From assembly GCF_056746865.1 (NCBI RefSeq), contig NZ_CM163382.1: a DNA stretch of 64,000 bases. The stretch is one strand, 5' to 3'. Within the stretch, counting starts at the first letter, position 1. Each line of letters opens with the position of its first letter. Under the pieces are notes generated by a model. The model saw only the letters and a list, made by a program, of their open reading frames with translations. It had not been told where the DNA came from and searched no databases. Below, one piece after another: positions 316-64,000 of the stretch. A program made the position numbers and the translations under genes.

Positions 316-324
316 GGACAGAAG

Positions 325-2031: not shown

Positions 2032-2057
2032 GAAGGATTTCTCATTAATAAGGACTG

Positions 2058-4073: not shown

Positions 4074-4094
4074 TCTGCTTTTGCAGGAGTATTC

Positions 4095-4943
4095 ATGAGA
4101 AACAAACTCTCTTTCGACTTGCAGTTGAGCGCCAGAAAAGCGGCAATCGCTGAACGGATTGCCGCCCATAAAATTGCCCGCAGCAAAGTGTCGGTCTTTT
4201 TAATGGCGATGTCCGCTGGCGTGTTTATGGCGATCGGATTTACTTTTTACCTTTCCGTTATCGCCGATGCCCCGTCTTCACAGGCATTAACCCATCTGGT
4301 GGGTGGCCTTTGCTTTACACTCGGCTTTATTTTGCTGGCGGTTTGCGGCACCAGCCTGTTCACCTCGTCGGTAATGACGGTGATGGCAAAAAGTCGGGGC
4401 GTTATTAGCTGGCGAACATGGCTGATTAATGCACTTCTGGTGGCCTGCGGTAATCTGGCAGGTATTGCCTGTTTCAGTTTGTTAATCTGGTTTTCCGGGC
4501 TGGTGATGAGTGAAAACGCGATGTGGGGAGTCGCGGTTTTACACTGCGCCGAGGGCAAAATGCATCATACATTTACTGAATCTGTCAGCCTCGGCATTAT
4601 GTGCAATCTGATGGTTTGCCTGGCGCTGTGGATGAGTTATTGCGGGCGTTCATTATGCGACAAAATCGTCGCCATGATTTTGCCCATCACCCTGTTTGTC
4701 GCCAGTGGCTTTGAGCACTGTATCGCCAATTTGTTTGTGATTCCGTTCGCCATTGCCATTCGCCATTTCGCCCCTCCCCCCTTCTGGCAACTGGCGCACA
4801 GTAGCGCAGACAATTTTCCGGCACTGACGGTCAGCCATTTTATTACCGCCAATCTGCTCCCGGTGATGCTGGGTAATATTATCGGCGGTGCAGTGCTGGT
4901 GAGTATTTGTTATCGGGCTATTTATTTACGTCAGGAACCCTAA
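4095..4943 (+). CDS. focB: formate channel, FNT family
   Basis: 282 aa polytopic membrane protein following hyfR, as in E. coli. Confidence 0.85.
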   Translation: MRNKLSFDLQLSARKAAIAERIAAHKIARSKVSVFLMAMSAGVFMAIGFTFYLSVIADAPSSQALTHLVGGLCFTLGFILLAVCGTSLFTSSVMTVMAKSRGVISWRTWLINALLVACGNLAGIACFSLLIWFSGLVMSENAMWGVAVLHCAEGKMHHTFTESVSLGIMCNLMVCLALWMSYCGRSLCDKIVAMILPITLFVASGFEHCIANLFVIPFAIAIRHFAPPPFWQLAHSSADNFPALTVSHFITANLLPVMLGNIIGGAVLVSICYRAIYLRQEP

Positions 4944-4979
4944 AAATCAGCCCGGCGAAACAGTTCGTCGGGCTGAAGA

Positions 4980-6041
4980 TTATTCTTGCGCGATTTGCCC
5001 ATCGGGCCAGGCGTGAATCACGGCTTTGATCAGCGTCGCCAATGGAATGGCGAAGAATACGCCCCAGAATCCCCACAAACCACCGAAGATCACTACTGAT
5101 AAAATAATGACCAGCGGATGCAGGTTAACCGCTTCGGAGAACAACACAGGTACTAACAGGTTGCCGTCCAGCGCCTGAATAATCAGATACACCGCGAAGC
5201 AGCTCCAGAATTCCGTGCCAGCACCAAACTGGAATAGCGCCACGCCAACCACCGGAATGGTCACCACAAATGCACCAATGTACGGAATAAGTACCGAGAA
5301 GCCGACCAGCACCGCCAGCAGCAGCGAATAGTTCAGCCCGAAGAGTAAGAATCCCAGCCAGGTGGCAATCCCCACCACGATCATCTCCAGCACTTTGCCG
5401 CGGATATAGTTGGTGATTTGTTGATTCATCTCCTTCCACACCTGTCCTGCCAGTCCACGGTTACGTGGCAGCACCCGGCGAACGGCGTTCAGCATCTGCT
5501 CTTTGTCTTTCAGCAGGAAGAAGACCATCAATGGTACCAGCACCAGATAGACGGCAATGGTCAGCAAACCGACCAGCGAGGCGAGGGAAATTTTCACCAC
5601 CGAATCGCCCATGGTCAGCATCCGACTGCGCATATTTTCGGCCATTGCATCAATAATGCCCGCGTCCATTAACGCCGGATAGCGGCGCGGCAACGTGGCG
5701 GCAAAGTCAGAAAGCTTATTGAGCATCCCCGGCATATCGCGGATTAAGTAGATGCCCTGTTGCCAGGCGATAGGCAGTACCACGAACGCCATCAGTAGCA
5801 ATATACCGACGAAAACCACCAATACAATCGACGTCGCCCAGCGGCGGGAGCAGCCAATAGATTGCAGGCGCACGGTTGGCCATTCCAGCAAATAGGCCAG
5901 CACAATAGCCACCAGCAACGGAGCAAGCAGGCCACTAAAGAAAAAGATAATGCCAAATCCGGCAACTAAAATAACCAGCAAGGCAATCGCTTCCGGGTCG
6001 CTAAAACGGCGGCGATACCATTGCATCAACATTTCGAGCAT
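4980..6041 (-). CDS. perM: AI-2E family transporter (YfgO/PerM)
   Basis: 353 aa multi-pass membrane protein in the conserved position opposite bepA. Confidence 0.8.
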   Translation of the reverse strand: MLEMLMQWYRRRFSDPEAIALLVILVAGFGIIFFFSGLLAPLLVAIVLAYLLEWPTVRLQSIGCSRRWATSIVLVVFVGILLLMAFVVLPIAWQQGIYLIRDMPGMLNKLSDFAATLPRRYPALMDAGIIDAMAENMRSRMLTMGDSVVKISLASLVGLLTIAVYLVLVPLMVFFLLKDKEQMLNAVRRVLPRNRGLAGQVWKEMNQQITNYIRGKVLEMIVVGIATWLGFLLFGLNYSLLLAVLVGFSVLIPYIGAFVVTIPVVGVALFQFGAGTEFWSCFAVYLIIQALDGNLLVPVLFSEAVNLHPLVIILSVVIFGGLWGFWGVFFAIPLATLIKAVIHAWPDGQIAQE

Positions 6042-6253
6042 AAAGACCTTCCCTGAACCTCAAGAGCGGGATTGCGATCCGCAATTGTATCGAAATGTCA
6101 CAAAAAAGACTTCGCTTTTTATGACGGATTCAGGAAACTGAAAAGTCATTTGAGTGGGCTAATCTTCGCCGTTACACTCAAAGGCGGCGCGGTGGGAACG
6201 ATATTTCACAGTATCGGTCAAATGACTATCTCCAGAAATACAGGATAGAGGTT

Positions 6254-7717
6254 ATGTTCAGGCAGTTGAAAAAAAACCTGGTTGCAACCCTCATTGCTGC
6301 CATGACCATTGGTCAGGTAGCCCCGGCGTTTGCCGACAGCGCAGACACCTTGCCGGATATGGGAACCTCCGCAGGAAGCACGCTTTCCATTGGTCAGGAA
6401 ATGCAGATGGGCGACTATTATGTCCGCCAGCTACGCGGCAGCGCGCCGTTAATTAATGACCCGCTGTTAACGCAATATATTAATTCGCTGGGGATGCGTC
6501 TGGTTTCGCATGCCAATTCGGTTAAGACACCGTTTCATTTTTTTCTGATCAACAACGACGAAATTAACGCCTTTGCTTTCTTTGGCGGCAACGTGGTGCT
6601 GCACTCTGCCCTGTTCCGTTATTCCGATAACGAAAGTCAACTGGCTTCAGTTATGGCGCACGAAATCTCCCACGTCACCCAACGTCACCTGGCGCGAGCG
6701 ATGGAAGATCAACAACGCAGCGCGCCGCTGACCTGGGTCGGCGCGTTAGGTTCTATTTTACTGGCGATGGCCAGTCCGCAGGCGGGGATGGCGGCGCTGA
6801 CCGGTACACTGGCGGGAACGCGCCAGGGGATGATCAGTTTCACCCAGCAAAATGAACAGGAAGCGGACCGCATTGGTATTCAGGTGCTGCAACGCTCGGG
6901 ATTCGATCCGCAGGCGATGCCGACCTTCCTCGAAAAATTGCTCGATCAGGCGCGTTACTCCTCGCGTCCGCCGGAAATTTTATTGACTCACCCGTTGCCG
7001 GAAAGTCGTCTGGCAGATGCCCGCAACCGTGCTAATCAGATGCGTCCGATGGTGGTGCAGTCGTCGGAGGATTTCTATCTGGCGAAAGCGCGCACACTGG
7101 GGATGTATAATTCCGGACGTAATCAGCTCACCAGTGATTTGCTGGATGAATGGGCGAAAGGAAACGTTCGTCAGCAACGAGCAGCACAATATGGTCGTGC
7201 TTTACAGGCGATGGAAGCCAATAAATACGACGAGGCGCGTAAAACGCTGCAACCGTTACTGGCGGCAGAACCTGGCAACGCATGGTATCTCGATCTGGCT
7301 ACCGATATCGATCTTGGGCAAAACAAAGCCAATGAGGCAATCAATCGCCTGAAAAATGCCCGTGATTTGCGCACCAATCCGGTGTTGCAGCTCAACCTGG
7401 CGAACGCTTATCTGCAAGGCGGTCAACCACAAGAAGCGGCCAATATTCTGAATCGCTACACTTTTAACAATAAAGATGACAGCAATGGCTGGGATTTACT
7501 GGCACAGGCGGAGGCGGCGCTAAATAACCGCGATCAGGAACTGGCTGCGCGAGCAGAAGGTTATGCGCTCGCCGGGCGACTCGATCAGGCCATTTCCTTG
7601 TTGAGTAGCGCCAGTTCGCAGGTGAAATTAGGCAGCCTGCAACAAGCGCGTTACGATGCGCGCATCGACCAATTGCGCCAGCTGCAGGAACGCTTTAAGC
7701 CTTATACCAAGATGTAA
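6254..7717 (+). CDS. bepA: periplasmic beta-barrel assembly-enhancing protease (M48 metalloprotease with TPR domain)
   Basis: 487 aa; signal peptide, HEISH zinc-binding motif, C-terminal TPR-like repeats. Confidence 0.85.
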
Positions 7718-7737
7718 TTCGCATTAAAGGAAGAACA

Positions 7738-8097
7738 ATGACCAAACAGGTAAAAATCTACCATAACCCACGCTGTTCAAAGAGCCGGGAAACGCTGAAC
7801 CTGCTGAAAGAAAACGGCGTGGAGCCAGAAGTGGTGCTCTACCTTGAGACACCCGCCGATGCGGCAACGCTGCGCGATTTGCTGAAAATGCTGGGGATGA
7901 ATAGCGCCCGTGAATTGATGCGCCAGAAAGAGGATCTTTATAAAGAACTGAACCTGGCTGACAGTTCACTTAGCGAAGAGGCGCTGATTCAGGCAATGGT
8001 GGATAATCCGAAGCTAATGGAGCGCCCGATTGTGGTCGCGAATGGCAAAGCGCGAATTGGTCGTCCACCGGAGCAGGTGCTGGAAATCGTGGGTTAA
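7738..8097 (+). CDS. yfgD: ArsC/Spx-family thioredoxin-fold protein
   Basis: 119 aa; N-terminal CxxS-type motif (HNPRCSKSR); conserved position after bepA. Confidence 0.8.
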   Translation: MTKQVKIYHNPRCSKSRETLNLLKENGVEPEVVLYLETPADAATLRDLLKMLGMNSARELMRQKEDLYKELNLADSSLSEEALIQAMVDNPKLMERPIVVANGKARIGRPPEQVLEIVG

Positions 8098-8202
8098 GAA
8101 GTGCTCCATCGCTAGTTGAAGCACATTGCCGGATGCGACGCTTGCCGCGTCTTATCCGGCCGACGAATACTATGGGTGCATTTCCGACAATAAACGTCTT
8201 GT

Positions 8203-8904
8203 CTACAGTTTCAGAATTTCTTTCACAAACGGAATGGTCAGCTTACGTTGCGCGGTAATCGACGCACGATCCAACTGATCCAACGTCATAAATAACGTGC
8301 GCATTTCTCTGTCGAGCCGCTTCAGCAAGAAACGCCCCACATCTTCCGGCAGTTCAAAACCACGCAAACGCGCGCGTAACTGTAGCGCCTGCAACTTATC
8401 TTCATCAGAAAGTGGCTGCAATTTGTAGATCTGCCCCCAGTCGAGACGCGACGCGAGATCCGGTAATCCAAGATTCAACTGCCGCGGTGGACGATCGCCG
8501 GTGATTAACAACCGTGTTTTGCCCGATTCCAGAATTCGATTGTAGAGATCGAAAATCGCCATCTCCCACAACTCATCGCCTGCAATACACTCAATGTTGT
8601 CGATACAGACCAGCGACAAATGCTCCATACCGTCGAGCACTTCCGGAACAAACCAGGTGCGTTTATCCAGCGGGACATAGCCCACCGCATCGCCACGCTG
8701 CGACAATTCCGCGCAAGCCGCGTGCAGCAGATGGCTGCGCCCCGCGCCTTCGCGTGCCCAGAGATAGATGTAACCGCTATGTTCCTGACGCAGCACGTTT
8801 TGCAGCGCGGCCAGTAAAGAGGAGTTATCCCCCGGCCAGAAACTTGCAAAGGTTTCGTCGTCAGGAAGATAAAGTGGCAAAGAGAGCTGTGCCGGTGTGT
8901 TCAG
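8203..8904 (-). CDS. hda: DnaA-inactivating AAA+ protein Hda
   Basis: DnaA-domain-III-like AAA+ sequence; start placed at the CTG codon (8902-8904) that gives the 233-aa form, and the longer ORF (to 8949) is also possible. Confidence 0.75.
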
Positions 8905-8998
8905 AGATACCTCAACCAGGATTTCACAAAATCGCGAGAAGTTTACCACAGAATCCCATGATGTTTGAACCGGGCAGCAACACTGCCCGGTCGGTACA

Positions 8999-10288
8999 TT
9001 ATTTGTCTGTTATATCCGCGTCTTCTGCGTCCAGCACCACTTCTTCAGGGCGCAGCACACTAATCATTTTGAAGATCAAACTTAAGCCGATACCGACGAT
9101 GGTCGCCAGCGCCATACCTTTCAGCTCCGCCGCGCCGATGTTTACCTTCGCGCCACTGACACCGATGATCAAAATCACGGAAGTCAGGATCAGGTTCTGT
9201 GCTTTGTTGTAATCCACTTTCGATTCGATCAAAACACGAATACCGGAAGCACCGATGACACCATAAAGCAGCAGCGAAACGCCGCCCATCACCGGCAATG
9301 GGATCATCTGGATAGCAGCAGCCAGTTTACCGACGCAGGAAAGCAGGATAGCGAAAATCGTCGCCCCGCCGATAACCCAGGTACTGTAAACACGGGTGAT
9401 CGCCATCACGCCAATGTTTTCCCCGTAGGTGGTGTTTGGCGTGGAGCCAAAGAAGCCGGAGATCACGGTCGACAAGCCGTTAGCAAACATCGAACGGTGC
9501 AGACCTGGATCGCGCAGCAGATCTTTTTTGACGATATTAGCCGTTACCACCAGGTGCCCTACGTGTTCGGCAATAACCACTAACGCCGCTGGCAGAATAG
9601 TCAGAATGGCAAACCACTCGAAGCGCGGCGTATAGAGGGTTGGCAGCGCAAACCAGTGAGCATTAATAATCGGCGTGGTATCGACAATTCCCATTGCGAA
9701 AGAGAGCGCGTAACCCACCAGCACGCCAATTAAAATCGGGATAATTGCCAGGAAACCACGAAACAGCACGGAACCTAAAACCGTGACTGCCAGGGTGGTA
9801 ATGGAGATGATGATGGTTTTGGAGTCTGGCGTTTGCCCTTCAGCCGGGAGTAAACCTGCCATACCGGCAGCTACGCCCGCCAGCTCCAGACCGATGACGG
9901 CAACGATTGCGCCCATTGCCGCAGGTGGAAACAGCACGTCCAGCCAGCCGGTCCCCGCTTTCTTCACGATAAAAGAAACCAGGCAGAACAGCACGCCGCA
10001 CATAATAAAGCCGCCCAGCGCGACTTCATACCCTAACGGCAACAGTAACAATACCGGTGAAATAAAGGCAAAGCTGGAACCAAGATAAGCCGGGATTTTC
10101 CCTTTACAGATGAAGAGATACAGCAGCGTTCCTATACCGTTAAATAACAGTACAGTCGCCGGGTTAATATGAAATAAGACGGGCACCAGGACGGTTGCAC
10201 CAAACATGGCGAACAAATGTTGCAAACTAAGCGGGATTGTCTGTAAAAGTGGCGGTCTTTCACTCACCCCGATAGCACGGCGCGTCAT
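8999..10288 (-). CDS. uraA: uracil:H+ symporter
   Basis: 429 aa from the ATG at 10288; NCS2-family polytopic membrane protein upstream of upp. Confidence 0.85.
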
Positions 10289-10373
10289 AGTATTATCCTC
10301 TGTATTATGTGTTATAGGCGCTTTACTCAAAAAAAAGCCGACTCTTAAAGTCGGCTTTAATTATTTTTATTCT

Positions 10374-11000
10374 TTATTTCGTACCAAAGATTTTGTCACC
10401 GGCATCGCCGAGGCCCGGAATAATGTATCCGTGCTCGTTCAGTCCCTGGTCAATTGATGCAGTATACAGTTCGACGTCCGGGTGCGCTTTTTCCAGCGCT
10501 GCGATACCTTCTGGTGCAGCTACCAGCACCAGAACTTTGATGCTGCTGCAGCCCGCTTTTTTCAGCAGGTCGATGGTCGCGATAACGGAACCACCGGTTG
10601 CCAGCATTGGGTCAACGATCAGCGCCATACGCTCATCGATGTTAGAAACCAGTTTCTGGAAGTACGGTACCGGCTCCAGCGTTTCTTCATTACGGTACAT
10701 ACCGACGACGCTGATGCGCGCGCTCGGAACGTTTTCCAGCACACCGTCCATCATCCCCAGACCCGCACGCAGAATTGGCACAACGGTAATTTTCTTACCT
10801 TTGATCTGGTCGATTTCTACCGGGCCGTTCCAGCCTTCGATAGTTACTTTTTCCGTTTCGAGGTCGGCGGTCGCTTCGTAAGTCAGCAGGCTACCCACTT
10901 CGGAAGCGAGTTCGCGAAAGCGCTTGGTGCTGATATCTTGCTCACGCATCAGTCCCAGCTTGTGTTTGACGAGTGGGTGTTTGACTTCCACGATCTTCAT
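10374..11000 (-). CDS. upp: uracil phosphoribosyltransferase
   Basis: 208 aa beginning [19 protein letters not shown]; PRPP-binding motif [12 protein letters not shown]. Confidence 0.9.
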
Positions 11001-11306
11001 ACTCTTTCTCCTTTGAGGGGCAGCCACAAAAAAAATCGACGGATTATACCTCCTTTCTTCAAGCCGGCAATATTATTTTCGTTGACTTTAGTCAAAATGA
11101 TAACGGTTTGAGATAAAGTTATTTTGTATTCAAATGGTTATGGAAGAAGATTATTCCATCCGAAAACGATCCTTTGCCCTGGTACAAGTATTCTTTCGCC
11201 GCGCGCCTGGGGAAAAGACGTGCAAAAAGGTTGTGTAAAGCAGTCTCGCAAACGTTTGCTTTCCCTGTTAGAATTGCGCCGAATTTTATTTTTCTACCGC
11301 AAGTAA

Positions 11307-12361
<1,055 letters not shown>

Positions 12362-12362
<1 letters not shown>

Positions 12363-13000
12363 TGAATATTGTGGTGCTTATTTCCGGCAACGGAAGTAAT
12401 TTGCAGGCAATTATTGACGCCTGCAAAACCAATAAAATTAAAGGCACCGTACGGGCAGTTTTCAGCAATAAGGCCGACGCGTTCGGCCTTGAACGCGCCC
12501 GCCAGGCGGGTATTGCAACGCATACGCTCATCGCCAGCGCGTTTGACAGTCGTGAAGCCTATGACCGGGAGTTGATTCATGAAATCGACATGTACGCACC
12601 CGATGTGGTCGTGCTGGCTGGTTTTATGCGCATTCTCAGCCCGGCGTTTGTCTCCCACTATGCCGGGCGTTTGCTGAACATTCACCCTTCTCTGCTGCCG
12701 AAATATCCCGGATTACACACCCATCGTCAGGCGCTGGAAAATGGCGATGAAGAGCACGGTACATCGGTGCATTTCGTCACCGATGAACTGGACGGTGGCC
12801 CGGTTATTTTACAGGCGAAAGTCCCGGTATTTGCTGGTGATACGGAAGATGATATCACCGCCCGCGTGCAAACCCAGGAACACGCTATTTATCCACTGGT
12901 GATTAGCTGGTTTGCCGATGGTCGTCTGAAAATGCACGAAAACGCCGCGTGGCTGGATGGTCAACGTCTGCCGCCGCAGGGCTACGCTGCCGACGAGTAA
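12362..13000 (+). CDS. purN: phosphoribosylglycinamide formyltransferase
   Basis: 212 aa; formyltransferase fold, start overlapping the purM stop (ATGA). Confidence 0.9.
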
Positions 13001-13165
13001 TGCCCCCGTAGTTAAAGCGCCAGCTCTGCCGCTGGCGTTTTTCAATTCACCTGTAAATCGCAAGCTCCAGCAGTTTTTTTCCCCCTTTTCTGGCATAGTT
13101 GGACATCTGCCAATATTGCTCGCCATAATATCCAGGCAGTGTCCCGTGAATAAAACGGAGTAAAA

Positions 13166-16784
<3,619 letters not shown>

Positions 16785-16822
16785 TGCTTTGCAGGCCGAC
16801 AAGAAATGTCGGCCTGCATTAT

Positions 16823-19066
16823 TCAGGCACTTTCGCGAATGGGTTCGATTTCATTCAGCGTATCAATTAACGGTTGCGGCTTACCAATAAGATAACCCTG
16901 CATATAATCGATCCCCAAAGAGAGCACCGCCTCGCGGATCTCTTCGTTTTCAACGTACTCTGCCACTACCCGCATTTTCTTCATTCGCGCCAGGTGGCAA
17001 ATCGACGCCACTATCTGATAATCCAGACTATTTGACACAATATTGCGGATAAAACTGCCGTCAATTTTAAGCAAATCGGCATTCACATTTTTAAGCCGCG
17101 CATAGCTGGCGTAGCCGGTGCCGAAATCATCAATCGCAATCTGGCAGCCTAATTCCTGAAGATGCTGCAAGGTGATTTGCGCCTGCTTAACATTGGTCAG
17201 AGCATTACTTTCGGTGACTTCAAAAATAAGTTGCCACGCTTCAATTTGATATTTAGCCAGCAGCTGACTGACTTCAACGGGAAAACGAGCCTGACATACC
17301 GAGGTTGGCGACAGATTAATCGCAAAACGGTGAGCGGGCATCTTCGCTCTGTTTTCAGCCATAAATTGCAGCGTATGCTCAATGACCCACATGTCGATAC
17401 TCGACGATAAACCAAATTCGTGCGCGACCGGCAAGAAGCTGTCGGGGCTGATCAGTTCATCATTCTCACCTTTCATGCGCAGAAGAATTTCATGGTAGAC
17501 ATCGCCACGCATACCGGTAATCAGCTGGGCCATCAGGAAAAAATGGTTGTGTTCCAGCGCCTGCTGTAGCCGATTCATCATCGCGACTTTATCTTTCAAT
17601 TCGCGTTGCAAATACATTGCCCCGCGACGCTGCATATTTTCCGGGGCGTTGGTCACGATGGAAAGCTCGGCGACCGTATTTAGCTCTCCCAGCAGCAGGT
17701 AGATATGATTCACTGGCGAGCGCACATAGCAGTAACTGACGCCAATCTGCGGTTGCATCGGCATTCCATCCCAAAAGAAACGAAATTGCTTGAGATGGCT
17801 ATCCAGTTCGGTAATGCGCTCCTGGTGCGATTCTGTATTCAGTCGCAGCGCGAGATCGTTACCCGAAAGCTGATAAACATCCTCACCCGGTTCCAGCAAG
17901 GGTGACAGCCAGTGAGAAAGTTTTTGCTTGTATTGAATCCGCAGCATGATGCCATAGTTCTTAACCAGCATTTCCATGCCAGGGATGCGTAAATAACAAA
18001 GCGCAGACCAGGGGGCATCACGCAACGCGCGATTCAGGGCGCGAACATTTGGCAGATGAACCACCGGGTCCACATACGCAAGCCGCTGAATGCGTCTGAC
18101 TACCGCTCTCTGACGGGTTGCCAGTACAGCCATATAATTGACAATAAAAGAGAATACCAGATAACTGGAGGAGGTTATGGTCAGCTGCGTGGTATAGCCA
18201 GGATAAATGGGAATGTAATTTTGATAGCTGTGGATGCTGATCATCAACACGACCGCCCAGAGCAGCGAAATCAGCTTATAACCATAGCGCATCGCTCCCC
18301 ACATCATCAGGGGCAGCAATAATGACAAGGTATAGTTGGTGCTAAAAATTGTGCTTTTTTCATTTAACGGCATGCATAACAGCAGCAGTAAAGCACCTAA
18401 TGCCAGTAGCCAGAGTGCGAACTCTTTTTTGGTGACTTTGACATCAACCTGCTGTTTTAATTGCGAATAATAACTACGTAAATAAAACGGATTTCGCACT
18501 ACACGAATGATGAAGTAGCACAGCGGGACACCAATCAGATTGCCCACCAGTAAGGCCTGATAATTGATTAAGGTCCCGAGGTTAAAAGGCATGACGCCGA
18601 CCAGATTTTCTCTGCTCGCCAGTAATCCTACAAACGCAGCAAACTGGAAAAGTATCAGAAACAGCGTTGCAGGAAACACAATCTGCCAGAATATACGCTG
18701 GGAAATTAAACGTGTATCACCATGTGAAACGTTGTTACGCCGGGGAGTAAAGACCCTGTAACCGCCCCAACAGAGAATGATAATGATAATAAAATTAGCC
18801 GTTAATGAGAGCGTTTCGTAAAAACCCAGCTCTGCATATTTGCGGACAAAAATCCCTAAGGCGATCCCTGGCAATGCCGCCCAGCTGAAAAACATCATCA
18901 TGCTGATCATCAGAGCCAGAGGCAGATAAAAGAGAAAAACCTCACCGGAAGAAATATGCGCGAAAGTATTAATGTGGGCGAAAATGGGCAAGATTAAAGA
19001 AGGCAGGAACAGCGGAAGCCCCCACCATTTATCACGTATTTTTATATAAGTTGCATTCAGTTTCAT
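16823..19066 (-). CDS. pdeF: cyclic-di-GMP phosphodiesterase with N-terminal membrane sensor domain (YfgF/PdeF)
   Basis: 747 aa; multi-TM N-terminus, degenerate GGDEF region and C-terminal EAL domain. Confidence 0.8.
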   Translation of the reverse strand: MKLNATYIKIRDKWWGLPLFLPSLILPIFAHINTFAHISSGEVFLFYLPLALMISMMMFFSWAALPGIALGIFVRKYAELGFYETLSLTANFIIIIILCWGGYRVFTPRRNNVSHGDTRLISQRIFWQIVFPATLFLILFQFAAFVGLLASRENLVGVMPFNLGTLINYQALLVGNLIGVPLCYFIIRVVRNPFYLRSYYSQLKQQVDVKVTKKEFALWLLALGALLLLLCMPLNEKSTIFSTNYTLSLLLPLMMWGAMRYGYKLISLLWAVVLMISIHSYQNYIPIYPGYTTQLTITSSSYLVFSFIVNYMAVLATRQRAVVRRIQRLAYVDPVVHLPNVRALNRALRDAPWSALCYLRIPGMEMLVKNYGIMLRIQYKQKLSHWLSPLLEPGEDVYQLSGNDLALRLNTESHQERITELDSHLKQFRFFWDGMPMQPQIGVSYCYVRSPVNHIYLLLGELNTVAELSIVTNAPENMQRRGAMYLQRELKDKVAMMNRLQQALEHNHFFLMAQLITGMRGDVYHEILLRMKGENDELISPDSFLPVAHEFGLSSSIDMWVIEHTLQFMAENRAKMPAHRFAINLSPTSVCQARFPVEVSQLLAKYQIEAWQLIFEVTESNALTNVKQAQITLQHLQELGCQIAIDDFGTGYASYARLKNVNADLLKIDGSFIRNIVSNSLDYQIVASICHLARMKKMRVVAEYVENEEIREAVLSLGIDYMQGYLIGKPQPLIDTLNEIEPIRESA

Positions 19067-19417
19067 AGATGCTCAGCAGAATCCCCCACATCCTGAAGGA
19101 GGTGTATTCAGACAGGCATCCCACCTGACTTCGAATGATGATTATTCATCACTATAGAGAGCATTGATTCTAAGTGTCATATGAAAGTTCCAATTGATAT
19201 ATATCAAACAAAATAACCCTGATTAATGAATTATTACGTTTATCATGTTAATTCATCATTATTACATCATCATTGTAAATAATTAAATTAACTTCCATAA
19301 CATTAAAATATGTATCCACTGACGCTTTTTTACATAACGAAGAATTGACCATTTTGTCCTGTTGTGCCTTAATGTAAGTACCGTCCACAGCGTGGGACAT
19401 ACTTCAAGGAACCTTTT

Positions 19418-19609
19418 GTGAGTCAGGCAACCAGTATGCGAAAACGACACCGATTTAACAGTCGCATGACCCGTATCGTACTGCTCATCAGCTTTATCTT
19501 CTTCTTTGGCCGTTTTATCTACTCGTCCGTCGGTGCATGGCAGCACCATCAGAGCAAAAAAGAAGCTCAGCAATCCACACTCTCCGTCGAATCACCGGTA
19601 CAACGTTAG
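19418..19609 (+). CDS. yfgG: small membrane protein YfgG
   Basis: 63 aa with one hydrophobic helix, in an AT-rich intergenic region between pdeF and yfgH. Confidence 0.55.
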   Translation: MSQATSMRKRHRFNSRMTRIVLLISFIFFFGRFIYSSVGAWQHHQSKKEAQQSTLSVESPVQR

Positions 19610-19919
19610 CGGTTACCTTCTCCACTTTCACAGAACATAACGGCACCTCGCTGTCGGATGCTTTTGCTCTTTGGGATTATCAAAGCGGCAGATATTCTTT
19701 CATCTTAAATTTTACGTCTTTGTCCTGACTGATGTTTTTCCTGTTTGGCTGCGAAATAAATATAAAATTAATACATATATTTTAATGATGTATTTTTATA
19801 AATTATTTCCCACATGAATTTTAATAAATTTAATCTATTCCTTTATACGCAATACATTTACTTTCCTCTTTTGATGATCTTAAATGTCTTATTTTTCGTA
19901 ATGTGTATAACAAGGAATA

Positions 19920-20438
19920 GTGATGAAATTTAAAAAATGTCTTCTGCCTGTGGCAACGTTAGCGTCATTCACTCTGGCAGGATGCCAGTCAAATGCTGAT
20001 GATCATGCCGCCGATGTTTATCAAACCGATCAACTGAATACCAAACAAGAAACTAAAACCGTTAATATTATTTCCATTCTTCCCGCAAAAGTTGCCGTAG
20101 ACAACTCCCAAAATAAACGAAACGCACAAGCCTTCGGCGCGCTTATTGGTGCAGTCGCTGGCGGTGTTATTGGCCACAACGTCGGGTCTGGCAGCAATTC
20201 CGGAACGACGGCAGGTGCAGTTGGCGGCGGAGCTGTTGGCGCGGCAGCGGGTTCTATGGTGAATGATAAAACCTTAGTGGAAGGTGTTTCTTTAACGTAT
20301 AAGGAAGGCACCAAAGTGTATACCTCCACCCAGGTGGGTAAAGAGTGCCAGTTTACGACAGGTTTAGCCGTTGTTATTACCACGACGTATAACGAAACGC
20401 GTATTCAGCCAAATACGAAATGTCCTGAAAAGAGCTAA
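19920..20438 (+). CDS. yfgH: outer-membrane lipoprotein with glycine-zipper region
   Basis: 172 aa; lipobox LAGC; Gly-rich GxxxG repeats. Confidence 0.75.
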   Translation: MMKFKKCLLPVATLASFTLAGCQSNADDHAADVYQTDQLNTKQETKTVNIISILPAKVAVDNSQNKRNAQAFGALIGAVAGGVIGHNVGSGSNSGTTAGAVGGGAVGAAAGSMVNDKTLVEGVSLTYKEGTKVYTSTQVGKECQFTTGLAVVITTTYNETRIQPNTKCPEKS

Positions 20439-42542: not shown

Positions 42543-42835
42543 TCCTGTTCACTGGCCTCTTTGGCCATCTTCAAATACTGTTCAGGGCAATGCGCCATAA
42601 CGCGCTGAAACAGTTCCAGCGCCAGATTGCGTTGCCCCTCATTAAATGCCATTGCCATAGCGTCCATCGGCGAGATAGCGGAAAACACACGACCTTTCTC
42701 CAGCACCGACCAGACAACGCGACGCCCCTGTTCACTGCTCATGACAAAGCGAATGTCATCAATTTCACGCTGTGCCATGTCACGTTGCTTACGGGCGTTT
42801 TCTTCTTTCAGTTGATCATCTTCGTAATCTGTCAT
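42539..42835 (-). CDS. hypothetical head-module protein
   Basis: 98 aa overlapping both neighbours. Confidence 0.4.
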   Translation of the reverse strand: MTDYEDDQLKEENARKQRDMAQREIDDIRFVMSSEQGRRVVWSVLEKGRVFSAISPMDAMAMAFNEGQRNLALELFQRVMAHCPEQYLKMAKEASEQE

Positions 42836-44511
42836 TGTGATTGCCCACCCTGACCACTAACTGCATTCGCCATAGCTGACAAAACACTCGGATCAGAAGT
42901 TTTAGCTTCGCTTAGCGTCTTGGCACCCTGTGCCGCCGCCATCCCCATCGCCATCATTTGTTGCTGCTGTTGCTGCTGTGCCCGTTGCTGGCGAGTCTGC
43001 TCAACCTGTTCCTGCGGAACAATGACGGTTGGAGACACTCCGGACATATCAGCGAATGCATCGATCGCCTGATCAACGTTGAGTTTGTCGAGAGCTTCTG
43101 GTTTCGCTTGCGCAAGTTGACCAATGAAGTTGACCGTGGATGCCAGACTGGACAGGCCGATAGACTTCTGCGCCTGAGCCATGACGGAAATGTATTCGAC
43201 CTTCAGGGGCATACCTTCCATCGCGTCAGGCGGTGGCGGCAGCATGTTTTTACGCACCATCATCGAGAAAGCGCGGTCAATGAGAGGATTAAGACATTCG
43301 TCGTTCAGACGCTCCAGAACCGGCCCCAACATCAGAAGTTTTTCTTCTTTCATTTCGATCACCGCTTCAACAGGCATCGAGCGGGTATTGATGTTCTGCA
43401 ACATCATGAACAGATCGACAAAGTAGGCGCTGTTAATGATTTGCCGAGTGTCCTGAATGTCTGCTACCAGATCTGCTGTACTGGGGTTAACCAGATAAGC
43501 AGGCCTGAAACCATCCTGACCAGTAATCTGATCGATATACGTGATGTCGCCAGGAAGAAGGGAGGCGCGCTGATTCTTGAGGGAAGTCGGAGCAACCATC
43601 GGCGGATTGGTGGCTTTATCAATCAACTGCGACTTGCGCTTCTGGAGAAGCTGCAATGCCTTAACAGGTCCAAGCGCCAGCATACCCGGGCATGATGATC
43701 CATAAACATCTTCGCCGTTAACTTCCCAGCGCGGAGCCATAATTGGAAACTCATCGAATCCGGACTCACGCAACAACTTGTCGTTATCGCCACCAACCTC
43801 GTAATAAACCGATTTGAATGGCTTGTTCTTGCTATCCAGCTTCGATGTATCGCGGTCAATGTTCGGGTAAACCGAATGCATCACTTCAATCCACTTCTCG
43901 TAGGTTCCGCTTTCCCACATGCTTTTTACGGATTCGCTGACGTTATTTAGCCCGAACTCCTGAACAAGCTGACGAACAGTCATAGAGAACTTGCGAAAAC
44001 AGGTGTCCACACTGCCACGAGGTGAGTTAGCCAGGTAGTAACTGCCTATCGGGAATGGCATTGTGCGAATGATGTCCTCGTCATCCTCCAGCACTGCCAT
44101 TGCACCAGTGCTGTATGTGCCGAGGCTTCCGTATAACTGCGGCAGCGACTGATAGAGATTCGACTTATTGAACATATCGTTCATGCGGTTCTGCACCGCC
44201 TCAAGCCACAACTTAACAGGGCCATAATCCATCATTTCAGGATCTGGCGTAGCCAGGCGAAACCACGGACGCGCGGGGCTTGTGATGCCTGACATCATGC
44301 CGCTGGCGAGAGTGCGCGCCGCCATAGTCCCGGTCGAATCAATAATGCGTGTATTGCGTCGATCGTTACGGTTAACCTCAGAAGTCAGAAAGCGGGAACC
44401 ACGCGGGTTGATGTAATCACTCAACTCGCGCCAGTGCGGCTCGAACGACTGACGCTCGCTTTCAAGTTGTGCGAACTGTTTGTTCAATCGCTCTTTAGTT
44501 GTTTCCGCCAT
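42832..44511 (-). CDS. portal (head-to-tail connector) protein, T7 gp8-like
   Basis: 559 aa; Gln/Ala/Met-rich C-terminal tail (QQRAQQQQQQQMMAMGMAAAQG) reminiscent of T7-type portals. Confidence 0.65.
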   Translation of the reverse strand: MAETTKERLNKQFAQLESERQSFEPHWRELSDYINPRGSRFLTSEVNRNDRRNTRIIDSTGTMAARTLASGMMSGITSPARPWFRLATPDPEMMDYGPVKLWLEAVQNRMNDMFNKSNLYQSLPQLYGSLGTYSTGAMAVLEDDEDIIRTMPFPIGSYYLANSPRGSVDTCFRKFSMTVRQLVQEFGLNNVSESVKSMWESGTYEKWIEVMHSVYPNIDRDTSKLDSKNKPFKSVYYEVGGDNDKLLRESGFDEFPIMAPRWEVNGEDVYGSSCPGMLALGPVKALQLLQKRKSQLIDKATNPPMVAPTSLKNQRASLLPGDITYIDQITGQDGFRPAYLVNPSTADLVADIQDTRQIINSAYFVDLFMMLQNINTRSMPVEAVIEMKEEKLLMLGPVLERLNDECLNPLIDRAFSMMVRKNMLPPPPDAMEGMPLKVEYISVMAQAQKSIGLSSLASTVNFIGQLAQAKPEALDKLNVDQAIDAFADMSGVSPTVIVPQEQVEQTRQQRAQQQQQQQMMAMGMAAAQGAKTLSEAKTSDPSVLSAMANAVSGQGGQSQ

Positions 44512-44525
44512 TTCAATGACTCCGG

Positions 44526-44732
44526 TTACTGACCAAGCAGCGTTTTACCGCTGGTATTAGCGGTTGATGTGTCGCCCTGAGAACCGGTAAGCAGCGTAGA
44601 ACTACGACCAGCAGCAGCGCGACGGCGACGAGTTTCTTCGTCGCGGGCATCAACAACGGCGGCATCCTGCTCCTGTGGTGCTGCCTGAACTTCTGGTGTT
44701 GCAGGCACTGATGGTGAGCTACCCATGCACAT
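44526..44732 (-). CDS. small hydrophilic protein upstream of the portal gene (frame choice uncertain)
   Basis: 68 aa; an alternative overlapping frame (44513-44752) also exists. Confidence 0.25.
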   Translation of the reverse strand: MCMGSSPSVPATPEVQAAPQEQDAAVVDARDEETRRRRAAAGRSSTLLTGSQGDTSTANTSGKTLLGQ

Positions 44733-44821
44733 ATCAATGACTCCGTACGCAATTAAATTATTACCAATTTAACCACATATGATTTATTTATCGTAGGTAG
44801 TTGACATTTAACGCACAAATT

Positions 44822-44836
44822 ATTACCTTTCAGGTA
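44822..44836. promoter_or_regulatory. operator-like inverted repeat TTACC-TTTCA-GGTAA upstream of the portal/head gene block
   Basis: Identical to the site at 27880; preceded by the shared TTACC-N5-AACCACATATG module. Confidence 0.5.
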
Positions 44837-45159
44837 ACCAAAGAGTTCATTCCGGTTACTAACCTGACTGGCTTGTCGTTAAATTGAACAGGTGGAGTGA
44901 GCTTTTATTTTGAGCAGTACGGCGTATGGCACATGCGCCGATAGCGGTCTGGATACGTTTAAGGGGCACCCTCCCTTGCTCGGGCAAACGAACCAGGTAG
45001 CCGGAATGTGCAAGTCGAGCGGTTTTATTCCGCGCACGGGGATTCACCATCCCGGCGATTCGGTGTGACGCCTCGGAAGAGACGAGGGTACAACGATGAG
45101 AGCATTTATGGAGCCGCGACAAAGTGTGGCGCCTTAACAGGCTAAGTGCTCTCAGCGTT

Positions 45160-45236
45160 GTGGCATTAGCTCAGCTGGACAGAGCAACCGCCTTCTAAGC
45201 GGTTGGTCGCAGGTTCGAATCCTGCATGCCACGCCA
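45160..45236 (+). tRNA. tRNA-Arg, anticodon UCU (reads AGA), prophage-encoded
   Basis: Manual cloverleaf: acceptor GTGGCAT/ATGCCAC, D-stem GCTC/GAGC, anticodon stem ACCGC/GCGGT with loop CTTCTAA, T-arm GCAGG-TTCGAAT-CCTGC, discriminator G and CCA end. Confidence 0.85.
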
Positions 45237-45279
45237 GAATCACGCCTAAGGACCGTGATGCCAGAAGTTCCATGGGCTT

Positions 45280-45321
45280 GGCGGTGATGGTTTCCCTTGA
45301 AGGACTATCACCGCCCTTTTT
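45280..45321 (+). terminator. rho-independent terminator downstream of the tRNA
   Basis: GGCGGTGAT...ATCACCGCC stem followed by CTTTTT. Confidence 0.55.
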
Positions 45322-45399
45322 ACAGCAGGACGCCATTGCGATGGCTTCATGCTGTAAACCAGTACAGCCACGGAAGGCATAACTCATTGCTTCCAGTTC

Positions 45400-45423
45400 G
45401 CCCGGTTCGCCGGGCATTTTTTT
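45400..45423 (+). terminator. rho-independent terminator
   Basis: GCCCGG-ttc-GCCGGGC followed by ATTTTTTT. Confidence 0.6.
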
Positions 45424-45431
45424 AAGGTGAG

Positions 45432-45808
45432 ATGATGAACGACCAGCAAATCGAAAAAGAAATCGTTGAGAAAGGTAAAACGGCACCTCGTGTAACTCCT
45501 GAGAAAATTGAAGGTCTCATTTGCAGTGAGCATTTTTTACTGCTGCGCAGGGGGATCATCAGGCTAAAGAAGATGACCTTATTTATAATCCAGAGCCTTA
45601 TGTCGAAGCCACCCCTGATGCTCTGCACCTTCTCACTTTCTGCGTCCTGGTGCTGCGCAACGACTTCACCGTCACCGGAGAGAGCGCCTGTGCAAGCCCG
45701 GAAAACTTTGATGCAGAAATTGGTCGGAAGATTGCCCGGCAGAATGCTGTAAACAAAATCTGGATGCTTGAAGGTTACTTGCTGAAGCAGAAGTTAAGCG
45801 GGCAATAA
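45432..45808 (+). pseudogene. conserved small phage protein gene interrupted by a frameshift at a T6 homopolymer
   Basis: N-terminal 35 codons in one frame (MMNDQQIEKEIVEKGKTAPRVTPEKIEGLICSEHF) continue after the T6 run at 45533-45538 in another frame (...TFCVLVLRNDFTVTGESACASPENFDAEIGRKIARQNAVNKIWMLEGYLLKQKLSGQ, stop at 45806-45808). Confidence 0.5.
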
Positions 45809-45898
45809 CACCGTGACATGTCACAAACAGCCAGCCTATGAGCTGGCTTTGTTTTATCCTCACCAGAGGATATCAACGACATTATCCCCACCAGCGGA

Positions 45899-47374
45899 TT
45901 AAGCATAGGGATCGTAATCTGTAATGGCCTTGCCTTGCTGGTTCTGCTGACCTGGAATTCGCAGACGCTTCGACACAGGGAAAGCAAACGTCAGCAATAG
46001 CGCATCGCCTTTACCCGGCGAACGCCCAAGACGCTCTTTGATATCTTCCTTCGGTTCGATAACGATTTTACCGTCCACGCGAACTTTGTACTCTGCCGCC
46101 GACAGGTCGTCCGCTGTTTCCTGGTCATCCAGCATGCCGCCCAGCCTCAGCCATGTCTTACATGAGTTGAACATCTCCCCACGCTTGTTAAGCATCTGCG
46201 GGTCAGTGGACGCACCGCCGAACGGAACAAGTTGCCATGTACGCCCCCAGCCATCACCGATTGACTTCAAACCGGTTCCGTAACCGAAGTCGATGAACAC
46301 TGCGTCAGCCTGGTACTGGTCTTCAAAGTCAGCGATACGCTTCGCCATAATCAGATCGTCAGTGGTCTTGTTGCCAGTCCACAGCACCTTACTGTGCAGC
46401 CCCTGCCGCAGGTATATCACAGCGTCATCAACGCCGGAGTATGCCGGGTCAACGCCGATTATCACCGGAGCATGTGCAACCTGCGCAGCGGTTACCACCC
46501 GTTTCATTGCCTCGTCAGTAAGACCGGTAGGGATAAACTGCAATTCAGATGCATCAGGGAATATGCCACGCACACGGATTTTAACGAAGTCGCTGTCTTC
46601 CCCGTAGTCATCAACCCATTTCTGCAACTGCTGTTTGTTAGTGCCTTCCACCGTCCGGCTGTCAATCTGCGCAGTTTTCCAGCGGTGTTTATATTTGCGG
46701 AAACATTCGCGAAAACGCCCGGTGTTACGTGTAGGGTTTCCGAACGCCACCCAAATAATCTCAGTGTCTTCGTCCGTAAGCGCACCCTCGGCAACTTCCC
46801 ACACCAGATCCGCAATGTTCGACGCTTCATCAAACACCACGATGATGCGTTTGCGCTCGTTGTGTAGTCCGGCGAATGCCTCAGTGTTGTGCTCAGACCA
46901 GGGTATTGCGTCAGCCCGCCACCGCTTGTCGTGCCCAGGGTCATTGCTGTACATCGCGGTAGCGGTACAGGTAAACCAGTCTTTCGTGATAGCAAGGTTC
47001 GACCACTTGATAATTTCCGGCCAGGTCTTCGTTCGTAGCTGGTTGTCGGTGTTGGCGGTCACCACGACCTTACAATCCTCGCAAGTGGACATGCCCCAGT
47101 TGATGAGCATTGAGATGAATGCGGATTTACCAATACCGTGACCAGAAGCACGTGCCAGCATAAGCGGCTGATAACGCGTCTCTGGATTCTGCAGGTGATC
47201 ACGTATCTCTCGGAACGCATCGGCCTGCCACTGACGTGGACCGGTAGCATGTGCCAGTTCAGTCCCCTCTTCCCCCCAAGGGAACGCATAGAGGGCATAG
47301 CCAAGCGGATCGTGAGTGAACCCTGCAATATCTTCGATTAACTGCTCTTCAGGAGATAACGCTGCATCTGTCAC
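45899..47374 (-). CDS. terminase large subunit
   Basis: 491 aa; Walker A-like motif (ASGHGIGKS), ATPase and nuclease acidic motifs; overlaps the small-subunit gene. Confidence 0.8.
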   Translation of the reverse strand: MTDAALSPEEQLIEDIAGFTHDPLGYALYAFPWGEEGTELAHATGPRQWQADAFREIRDHLQNPETRYQPLMLARASGHGIGKSAFISMLINWGMSTCEDCKVVVTANTDNQLRTKTWPEIIKWSNLAITKDWFTCTATAMYSNDPGHDKRWRADAIPWSEHNTEAFAGLHNERKRIIVVFDEASNIADLVWEVAEGALTDEDTEIIWVAFGNPTRNTGRFRECFRKYKHRWKTAQIDSRTVEGTNKQQLQKWVDDYGEDSDFVKIRVRGIFPDASELQFIPTGLTDEAMKRVVTAAQVAHAPVIIGVDPAYSGVDDAVIYLRQGLHSKVLWTGNKTTDDLIMAKRIADFEDQYQADAVFIDFGYGTGLKSIGDGWGRTWQLVPFGGASTDPQMLNKRGEMFNSCKTWLRLGGMLDDQETADDLSAAEYKVRVDGKIVIEPKEDIKERLGRSPGKGDALLLTFAFPVSKRLRIPGQQNQQGKAITDYDPYA

Positions 47375-61011: not shown

Positions 61012-62262
61012 TTATTCCCCCGCCATCCACTTCTCAAACTTCGACGGGGAGAACGGAATCAGATCCGTATGCTCCCCGTTAATCCAGGAATCAATCATAT
61101 CGGACCACTGCTGCAACATGTAGGCGCGCTGTCTGGCGTATTCCGCTTTGTTATATACGGCGCGCACACCTTTCTGCTCATGTGCCAGAGCCTTTTCAAT
61201 CCAGTCTGAAGGATAACCAGCCTCATGCAACAACGTACTGGCTGTACGGCGCATATCGTGTACGGTGAAGTCCTGAATATGCTCACCATCTTCATTTATT
61301 ATTTTCACCGTTCTGTCGATCAGAGAGTTCAGCGCGGCATTAGATAATGGCTTCCGGAAGTTGTAACGACCAGGAACCAGATATTCACTTCCACCAGCGC
61401 ACATCTGCAACCCAACCAATATATCCTGAGCCTGTTTAGGCAGGTAAATAACGTGCGCCCGGCTTCCCTTCATGCGGTCTGAAGGAATTGTCCATGTCCA
61501 TTTTTTAAAATCTATTTCGTCCCACGTTGCATTAGTGAATTCGCCTTTACGAACCATAGTGATAAGCACCAGCTTTAAAGCCATTTTCATAGTGCCCATA
61601 GCACCAATGGCATCCAGCGTGCGGAAGAACAGGCCAATTTCTTCTGGTGTCAGTGTTCGCTCTCGTGGTTTAAATATGGCGATAGACGAAGGTTTAATGT
61701 CAGCCGCAGGATTAAACAAACCATGACCACGGTCATTGGCGTGACGGTATACGCTACTGATGATCTCCCTGGCCTGCACTGCTGTTGCCCGGCCACCGCG
61801 TTCGACAATCCGGTCACACAAATCACGAACCATCGATGTGGTAATTTCAGCCATCATTTTATTGCCAAGAACCGGAAGTATGTCACGGTCGATCACCGCC
61901 TGTTTCATTGCGCGGGTACTGTCAGCCAGGATGACGTGTTTCATATAACTGTCGGTATGTACCGCAAACGTCTCGGCACCACGAATCTTTTTGATACCGT
62001 CACGTTTAGCCGCAGCCGGTGACTGGCCTGCTTTAAGCAGCTTCTTTGCAGCAATCAGTTCTTCTCGCGCTTCTGCCAGGCTGATACCGTCACGCCCATA
62101 CTGCCCGATTACCAGTGTTTCGCGGCGACCGTTGATACGGTAGTCATAGCGAAACGAGACCGTGCCTGACGTAAGCACAGCTACATACAGCCCGTCACGA
62201 TCGGAGACCTTGTACAGTTTGTCCTGCGGCTTGAGGTTTTTTAATTTTGTATCGGTAAGCAC
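61012..62262 (-). CDS. int: tyrosine integrase (P4-like, with N-terminal arm-binding domain)
   Basis: 416 aa; N-terminus MLTDTKLKNLKPQDKLYKVSDRDGLYVAV typical of arm-type DNA-binding domains; C-terminal catalytic region (HDMRRT...AHEQKGVRAVY); adjacent to the att repeat. Confidence 0.85.
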   Translation of the reverse strand: MLTDTKLKNLKPQDKLYKVSDRDGLYVAVLTSGTVSFRYDYRINGRRETLVIGQYGRDGISLAEAREELIAAKKLLKAGQSPAAAKRDGIKKIRGAETFAVHTDSYMKHVILADSTRAMKQAVIDRDILPVLGNKMMAEITTSMVRDLCDRIVERGGRATAVQAREIISSVYRHANDRGHGLFNPAADIKPSSIAIFKPRERTLTPEEIGLFFRTLDAIGAMGTMKMALKLVLITMVRKGEFTNATWDEIDFKKWTWTIPSDRMKGSRAHVIYLPKQAQDILVGLQMCAGGSEYLVPGRYNFRKPLSNAALNSLIDRTVKIINEDGEHIQDFTVHDMRRTASTLLHEAGYPSDWIEKALAHEQKGVRAVYNKAEYARQRAYMLQQWSDMIDSWINGEHTDLIPFSPSKFEKWMAGE

Positions 62263-62450: not shown

Positions 62451-62467
62451 TTAATCATTCCCACTCA
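62451..62467. repeat. attR candidate: 17-bp direct repeat AATCATTCCCACTCAAT overlapping the guaA stop codon
   Basis: Identical to 23131-23147; encodes the last guaA codons (..IEWE-stop) on the minus strand. Confidence 0.6.
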
Positions 62468-64000
62468 ATAGTCGCTGGTGGCTTGCCGCTGATGTCATAC
62501 ACCACGCGGGAAATACCGTTCACTTCATTGATAATGCGGTTGGAAACGCGACCGAGGAAGTCATACGGCAGGTGCGCCCAGTGTGCGGTCATAAAGTCGA
62601 TGGTTTCGACAGCACGCAGAGAAACAACCCAGTCATACTTACGACCATCGCCCATTACACCAACGGAACGTACCGGCAGGAAGACGGTGAACGCCTGGCT
62701 GACTTTGTCGTACAGGTCCGCTTTACGCAGTTCTTCAATAAAGATGGCGTCAGCACGGCGCAGCAGGTCGCAGTACTCTTTCTTCACTTCGCCCAGTACA
62801 CGAACGCCGAGGCCTGGTCCCGGGAACGGGTGACGGTACAGCATGTCGTACGGCAGGCCCAGCTCCAGACCAATCTTACGCACTTCGTCTTTGAACAGCT
62901 CTTTCAGCGGTTCAACCAGCCCCATCTTCATCTCTTTCGGCAGGCCGCCCACGTTGTGGTGAGATTTGATGACGTGTGCTTTACCGGTTGCAGATGCGGC
63001 AGATTCAATAACGTCAGGGTAGATAGTGCCCTGCGCCAGCCACTTCACGTCTTCCAGTTTCAGTGCTTCTTCATCGAATACTTCAACGAAAACGCGCCCG
63101 ATGATTTTACGTTTTGCTTCCGGATCGTTTTCGCCGGCCAACGCTGACAGGAAGCGAGCTTCTGCCGGAACGTGAACAATGTTCAGACCAAAGTGATCGC
63201 CAAACATATCCAGAACCTGCTCTGCTTCGTTGAGACGCAGCAGGCCGTTGTCGACGAATACGCAAGTCAGGTTTTTACCGATAGCGCGGTGCAGCAGCAT
63301 TGCGGTTACGGAGGAATCCACACCACCAGAGAGGCCGAGGATGACTTTATCGTCGCCTACCTGCTCGCGGATGCGAGCTACGGCGTCGTCGATAATTTTC
63401 GCTGGCGTCCACAGGGCTTCACACTGGCAGATATCACGCACAAAACGCTCCAGCATGCGCATACCCTGGCGGGTGTGAGTCACTTCCGGGTGGAACTGTA
63501 CGCCATAGAAGCGTTTTTCTTCGTTAGCCATAATGGCAAACGGGCAGCTTTCGGTGCTGGCTACGGTGACGAAGTCGGACGGGATAGCGGTAACTTTATC
63601 GCCGTGGCTCATCCAGACATCGAGCAGCGGTTTACCGTCTGCGGTCAGCGCATCTTCGATACCGCGAACCAGTGCGCTGTCGTTTACGACTTCAACCTGC
63701 GCGTAGCCAAATTCACGTTCGTTAGAGGCTTCAACGTGACCGCCCAACTGCATTGCCATGGTCTGCATGCCATAGCAAACGCCGAATACCGGTACGCCTG
63801 CTTCAAAGACATACTGCGGCGCGCGCGGGCTGTTTTCTTCGGTGGTGCTTTCCGGGCCGCCGGAAAGAATAATGCCGCTTGGGTTGAAGTCACGAATTTG
63901 TGCTTCTGTCACATCCCACGCCCACAGTTCGCAGTAAACACCCAGTTCACGCACGCGGCGCGCAACCAGTTGAGTGTACTGAGAACCGAAGTCCAGAATG
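62455..64000 (-). CDS. guaA: GMP synthase (glutamine-hydrolysing), 3' portion; N-terminus lies beyond the window
   Basis: C-terminal ATP-pyrophosphatase domain (SGGVDSSV P-loop) and part of the glutamine amidotransferase domain; reading frame runs off the right window edge. Confidence 0.9.

Follow-up and report, generated by a model that had tools for sequence, protein, structure and literature searches.

We find that positions 45435 to 45808 (+ strand) of the window, the whole 64,000-nucleotide stretch of DNA analyzed here, hold a single phage gene that is split by a 1-nucleotide frameshift at a T homopolymer. By its sequence and predicted fold, the gene belongs to the Acb4 / Gp49 / Sf6 gene 66 family (PF13876), and the locus is a disrupted copy rather than a working member of that family, its open reading frame (ORF) not being intact and the frame being lost after Phe34. 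With a run of seven T residues (T7) it would encode 124 amino acids, as the intact orthologues do, and the run of six (T6) that is present probably reflects a genuine 1-bp deletion that has turned an acb4-like prophage gene into a null allele.

The T run, at 45533 to 45538 (+), consists of six T residues in the context gcaTTTTTTac. Read in frame 0 from the ATG at 45432, the sequence gives MMNDQQIEKEIVEKGKTAPRVTPEKIEGLICSEHFL and then a non-protein-like tail, rich in cysteine, serine, and leucine past the T run, up to the TAA at 45750 to 45752, for a total of 106 amino acids (45432 to 45752, +). The -1 frame is open from 45527, just ahead of the T run, and reads AFFTAAQGDHQAKEDD...NAVNKIWMLEGYLLKQKLSGQ (ending in LLKQKLSGQ*) up to the TAA at 45806 to 45808. 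The addition of one T joins the two into a single product of 124 amino acids from 45435 or 125 amino acids from 45432. The preliminary description took the frame starting at 45432 behind a Shine-Dalgarno sequence as encoding a plausible N terminus, and the N terminus does lie there, with AAGGTGAG at 45424 to 45431 (+), but the orthologues start at the second ATG, at 45435. The ATG at 45432 is the product of a T-to-G change at 45434 that is private to the window, the relatives having ATTATG. Numbered from 45435, the native residues of the frame-0 product end at Phe34 and are followed by about 70 out-of-frame residues. A residual 52-amino-acid ORF with a GTG start remains downstream (45650 to 45808, +); no Shine-Dalgarno sequence is visible upstream of it, and its production is therefore not expected.

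The same description held that the protein-like sequence changes frame after the T6 tract and runs on to 45808 and that one extra T would restore a protein of about 125 amino acids, and both statements are borne out. The restored 125-amino-acid protein matches Pfam family PF13876 (Phage_gp49_66) with an E value of 1.4e-33 and a score of 115.6 bits against a gathering cutoff of 27, and the alignment is one uninterrupted stretch that covers the whole model (HMM positions 1 to 82; residues 21 to 122) and crosses the junction. The split is thus not a chance feature, and the two halves are one gene. On its own, the 52-amino-acid ORF still matches PF13876 at 86.2 bits, through the C-terminal part of the model only (HMM positions 35 to 82), and the 106-amino-acid frame-0 ORF has no match to any Pfam family. 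The outcome that had been named as speaking against a split gene, with the halves being unrelated genes in homologues, is not what we see. Two separate small genes abutting at the T run would account for the two entries in the mechanical ORF list (45432 to 45752 and 45650 to 45808), but we give this reading practically no credence and reject it, as a single Pfam domain and a single predicted fold cross the junction, the homologues are all single proteins of about 124 amino acids encoded by single ORFs, the tail of the frame-0 ORF lacks a family match, and the 52-amino-acid ORF lacks a ribosome binding site of the Shine-Dalgarno type.

Homologues of the restored protein number in the thousands and are mostly 118 to 130 amino acids long. 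PF13876 was long labeled as being of unknown function, and PHROG 322, which the restored protein matches at 1.2e-59, still carries that label. Recent work has identified PF13876 as the Acb4 family (bioRxiv 10.1101/2024.12.30.630793; 10.1101/2025.07.12.664507). Acb4 of Bacillus phage SPO1 is a 96-amino-acid protein that forms a pinwheel tetramer and sequesters 3'3'-cGAMP and related CBASS signals; Acb4 alone rescued phage T4 lacking acb1 and acb2 from a CBASS operon of Yersinia aleksiciae, while with a second CBASS operon tested it gave no rescue of the engineered T4; and 8 of 8 purified homologues from the 1,331-member PF13876 family bound 3'3'-cGAMP (bioRxiv 10.1101/2024.12.30.630793; 10.1101/2025.07.12.664507). 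The restored protein alone matched the SPO1 Acb4 structure (PDB 9E4W) with an E value of 0.0027, and a family profile built from 40 sequences did so with an E value of 1.3e-5. An AlphaFold2 (AF2) model of the restored protein had a mean pLDDT of 88 and a pTM of 0.76, with predicted strands at residues 29 to 36, 67 to 74, and 79 to 85 and a helix at 94 to 123. When this model was compared with the PDB by Foldseek, 13 chains of 9E4W were the only significant matches (probability, 1.00; target-normalized TM score, 0.52 to 0.70), and the fold of the Acb4 protomer, a helical N terminus, three antiparallel strands, and C-terminal helices, is present in the model. As a separate observation, two features are annotated under the match to the family homologue in Escherichia phage Huey (PQ850609.1, 37814 to 38191), and one of them is named "anti-CRISPR protein."

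The gene lies in an epsilon15/phiV10-like (Uetakevirus-type) prophage of E. coli. Positions 1 to 20000 of the window are E. coli chromosome (hyfR, bepA, ppk, ppx, and pdeF), and the prophage extends from about 21 kb to an integrase gene (61012 to 62262, - strand) that abuts guaA (62455 to 63954); integration next to guaA is common to the relatives A357 (L005) and 7CC (L006). The acb4-like gene is on the + strand, between the genes for the portal (42832 to 44511, -) and the large terminase (45899 to 47374, -). A tRNA-Arg(UCU) gene (45160 to 45236, +), found by Rfam and annotated in relatives, stands at the head of this + strand cassette and was the sole hit in an Rfam scan of 44400 to 46000. 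A hairpin scan gave a terminator-like hairpin, GCCCGGTTCGCCGGGC (45400 to 45415, +), with a T7 tail immediately ahead of the Shine-Dalgarno sequence, and a second terminator-like hairpin at 45280 to 45315; a further one (45829 to 45848, +) lies past the stop codon and before the convergent large-terminase gene, where phiV10 has an annotated terminator. No sigma-70 promoter was found in a simple scan of 44500 to 46000. The T7 tail of the hairpin before the Shine-Dalgarno sequence (45417 to 45423), which is noncoding and in the same cassette, is T6 in A357. The roughly 430 nucleotides upstream of the tRNA-Arg gene (44733 to 45159) have no convincing ORF, Rfam match, or promoter-like site, and a patch within them (44960 to 45040) is highly variable and rich in indels across the relatives.

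In the otherwise collinear prophages of A357 (L005:21435-21857) and 7CC (L006:21436-21858), an unrelated 140-amino-acid ORF without a Pfam match replaces the acb4-like gene after the tRNA-Arg gene, at the place that corresponds to 45435 to 45810 of the window. What lies between the portal and terminase genes is hence a swappable cargo slot, and other anti-defense genes may possibly be found there.

Comparison with related prophages, which the preliminary description had proposed as a check, showed that the closest relatives carry the one extra T that it had named as restoring a single ORF. The closest complete genomes (TUM13773, APEC E19035, MS20653, three "729" poultry isolates, and GPEC505-623) carry the 481-nucleotide cassette at 98.5 to 99.2% identity, one base longer and with T7, and in TUM13773, APEC E19035, and MS20653 an intact 124-amino-acid "Gp49 family protein" is annotated. 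A 66-nucleotide probe centered on the run matched 7 of 5,426 complete E. coli genomes; all seven were one base longer, and the T6 allele was found in none of the 5,426. The exact T7 pattern was present in 4 IMG/VR contigs, so that T7 and an intact gene are seen in 11 close relatives with identical flanks (the 7 genomes and the 4 contigs). An alignment of the cassette with four relatives showed T7 in three and TTTTTTC in the fourth, isolate 23S01245-7, with the run in frame in all of them, and the change from T7 to T6 is the sole length difference from the three closest relatives across the 481 nucleotides. The exact 38-nucleotide T6 pattern was absent from IMG/VR, the GTDB representative genomes, and JGI metagenome contigs, and neither the frameshifted products (106, 105, and 52 amino acids) nor the restored proteins had an exact entry in a collection of 15 billion proteins. 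The T6 allele is thus corroborated by no independent assembly.

Isolate 23S01245-7 has a lesion of its own. Codon 7 of its acb4-like gene is changed from GAA to TAA (L004:3074-3076, corresponding to 45453 to 45455 of the window), and RefSeq gives the gene as a shortened coding sequence from an ATC codon at 3083. In another lysogen, the acb4-like gene has therefore been disrupted independently, by a nonsense mutation.

Since the length change falls exactly at a homopolymer, a classic site of sequencing and assembly errors, and the T6 allele is a singleton in every collection searched with T7 in 11 of 11 closest relatives, it is possible that the acb4-like gene is in truth intact in the organism, with T7, and that one T was lost in base calling or consensus building. 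We consider this unlikely though far from negligible, and a real mutation is favored on three indirect grounds, with all of which a single isolated error would still be compatible. The adjacent host DNA (positions 1 to 20000) includes 20 homopolymers of at least 6 bases and aligns to several independent complete genomes as a single piece without gaps, at 100.0% identity. Neither was any other frame-breaking indel of 1 to 2 nucleotides found in the prophage segments of the window that could be aligned to relatives. Over 5.7 kb aligned to MS20653, with 106 substitutions, there is no gap other than the T run, and 17.2 kb of structural genes aligned to A357 had two gaps only, both at the cassette junction. 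The remaining indels were paired or compensating in divergent stretches, intergenic, at the ends of alignments, or a lesion in the relative, as in the DUF1064 gene of A357, which has a 5-nucleotide duplication and is annotated as frameshifted. Finally, the acb4-like gene of the window also carries private point substitutions, which are not homopolymer artifacts. Such decay is common: besides the nonsense codon in isolate 23S01245-7, annotated frameshifted accessory genes occur in three related prophages.

The private changes deserve some caution. The window differs from 10 of 10 relatives at 45273, 45434, 45663, and 45801, and between 43.5 and 48.5 kb four of the five private substitutions are inside the cassette. 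The binomial probability of finding at least 4 of 5 in 529 of 5,000 bp is about 6e-4, for an interval that was chosen post hoc. The two changes 3' of the frameshift are nonsynonymous, a G-to-A change at 45663 (+) giving Gly77 to Asp and an A-to-G change at 45801 (+) giving Glu123 to Gly. Position 77 is glycine in 119 of 120 homologues and adjoins Phe78, the counterpart in the alignment of Phe48 of SPO1 Acb4, which stacks on guanine; G77D need not signal decay, however, because one intact homologue, P0075, has Asp77 too. The density of private changes is similar in other prophage segments (40.5 to 43.5 kb). For these reasons (the post hoc interval, the equal divergence elsewhere, and Asp77 in an intact protein), we do not take the excess of substitutions as proof of long decay and keep it as weak support.

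The preliminary description had also raised expression dependent on slippage at the T6 tract, and this suggestion did not hold up. It could take the form of -1 ribosomal frameshifting, of slippage of RNA polymerase adding one U, or of a reversible switch between T6 and T7, and we judge it very improbable. What makes it worth considering is that the tract forms a canonical X_XXY_YYZ heptamer, U_UUU_UUA (45533 to 45539, +), that lies in the frame of the ATGs at 45432 and 45435, so that a -1 slip would restore the frame exactly, with F35L as the sole change, and that there is a precedent for a "savior indel plus low-level compensatory frameshifting" (PMC5009743). A programmed site would be conserved, and this one is not: the relatives have a single ORF with T7 or TTTTTTC, and among 120 homologues residue 34 is tyrosine in 98 and phenylalanine in 18, so most alleles have no run at all. 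In E. coli, the efficient shift motifs are V_VV.A_AA.R, H_HH.U_UU.Y, and a few others, and U_UUU_UUA is outside these; slippery motifs without a stimulator reach at most about 10 times the 0.055% background (PMC4066793). The RNA downstream is not more stably folded than shuffled sequence (minimum free energy for 45533 to 45640 of -26.3 kcal/mol versus -22.8 +/- 3.3 for the shuffles; z, -1.07). Programmed -1 frameshifting is therefore not supported, the site being unconserved, the motif weak, and a stimulatory structure missing. We also reject transcriptional slippage and phase variation: the cited bacterial example of transcriptional slippage involves runs of 9 A or T (PMC5009743) and the run here is 6, and apart from the single T6 case no length polymorphism was found. 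Full-length product from the T6 allele would, we infer, amount to a fraction of a percent at most and be an accident of the deletion.

It remains a long shot that the T7/T6 tract works as a crude reversible switch or that U_UUU_UUA yields a trickle of F35L protein. If so, the prophage would have an anti-CBASS sponge that is near silent in the lysogen, sparing the host CBASS, and that is recoverable, which would be a "savior indel" in an anti-defense gene. The intact T7 alleles themselves have U_UUU_UUU in frame 0 (e.g., L001:3154-3160, corresponding to 45533 to 45539 of the window). This heptamer belongs to the class H_HH.U_UU.Y, which is rated as an efficient -1 shift motif in E. coli, and UUUUUUU is underrepresented in the genes of that species (PMC4066793). 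The intact alleles may leak slightly, giving some truncated product, and are prone to indels.

Our preferred explanation for the locus is a real T7-to-T6 deletion. Replication slippage would have removed one T from the homopolymer at codons His33-Phe34-Phe35, in a gene that, with the tRNA-Arg(UCU) gene, forms a small opposite-strand cargo cassette between portal and large terminase of an epsilon15/phiV10-like prophage beside guaA in E. coli. Characterized members of the family are tetramers that sequester the cyclic-dinucleotide signals of CBASS during lytic growth (bioRxiv 10.1101/2024.12.30.630793; 10.1101/2025.07.12.664507). Here, the run sits within the first β-strand of the AF2 model, where translation would leave the frame, so that the second and third strands, the long helix at the C terminus, and the ligand pocket would be missing from the product; the aligned pocket residues all fall in the out-of-frame part. 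The predicted product is a peptide of 105 or 106 amino acids with about 70 nonsense residues, and the T6 allele is most likely nonfunctional. It presumably persists because selection does not maintain an anti-defense gene in a resident prophage.

The locus is probably an ordinary pseudogene; it is a disrupted copy of a known and functionally characterized anti-defense family, at the place where this family is usually found in a common type of E. coli prophage. The correct label is a frameshifted acb4-like (Gp49 family) pseudogene in place of two hypothetical ORFs. The "hypothetical" family of Sf6 gene 66 and phiV10p03 now has a known function, that of an anti-CBASS nucleotide sponge, and the locus is one more case of prophage accessory or anti-defense genes decaying in lysogens. 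The finding would carry greater weight if the host carried CBASS and selection proved to favor losing the sponge.

Among known systems, the programmed -1 sites of dnaX (A_AAA_AAG), IS911/IS3, and HIV-1 (U_UUU_UUA) resemble the T6 tract in that the heptamer is correct, lies in the right frame, and is placed where a -1 shift is needed. They differ from it in that the site here is not conserved and lacks both a stimulatory structure and a second functional product and in that the motif is weak in E. coli, and the resemblance is accidental.

SPO1 Acb4 is, like the restored protein, a small accessory protein of a phage or prophage. Its Phe48, Phe62, and Ile66 correspond to Phe78, Phe92, and Ile96 here, and an EIGR motif aligns as well. 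The two proteins are only about 25% identical, however, and the restored protein adds an N-terminal extension of about 30 amino acids and a variable insert at residues 40 to 65; the gene here is also frameshifted, so that a product is not expected. The contact residues of SPO1 Acb4 that we compared were K36, F48, E49, V56, Y57, F62, N63, I66, T70, and K81 (chain numbering in 9E4W is native plus 1, and K81 is outside the aligned stretch). In the HMMER alignment, the restored protein has D, T, A, D, and I in place of K36, E49, Y57, N63, and T70, respectively. Of the residues so replaced, Lys36 and Glu49 contact the guanine edge and Tyr57 and Thr70 contact the phosphates in SPO1 Acb4, and none of the four is conserved here. 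Because several polar contacts are not conserved, the alignment suggests that the ligand preference of the restored protein may differ from that of SPO1 Acb4, and homologues are reported to differ in specificity (bioRxiv 10.1101/2024.12.30.630793).

Closer at hand is phiV10p03 of Escherichia phage phiV10 (Uetakevirus), an intact orthologue annotated as "similar to gene 66 of Sf6," the namesake of the family. It shares with the window gene the opposite-strand orientation, the slot between large terminase and portal, and a terminator past its end. The gene follows tRNA-Arg in the E. coli prophage relatives, as in the window, whereas this tRNA is unannotated in the phiV10 record. The intact E. 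coli "Gp49 family protein" genes (e.g., WP_001525344.1) have T7 or no run at this place, in contrast to T6 in the window. The window gene is 98% identical to cluster P0001 at the protein level and about 99% identical to TUM13773 at the DNA level, and besides the missing T it is set apart from its intact relatives by the private G77D and E123G changes and the extra upstream ATG.
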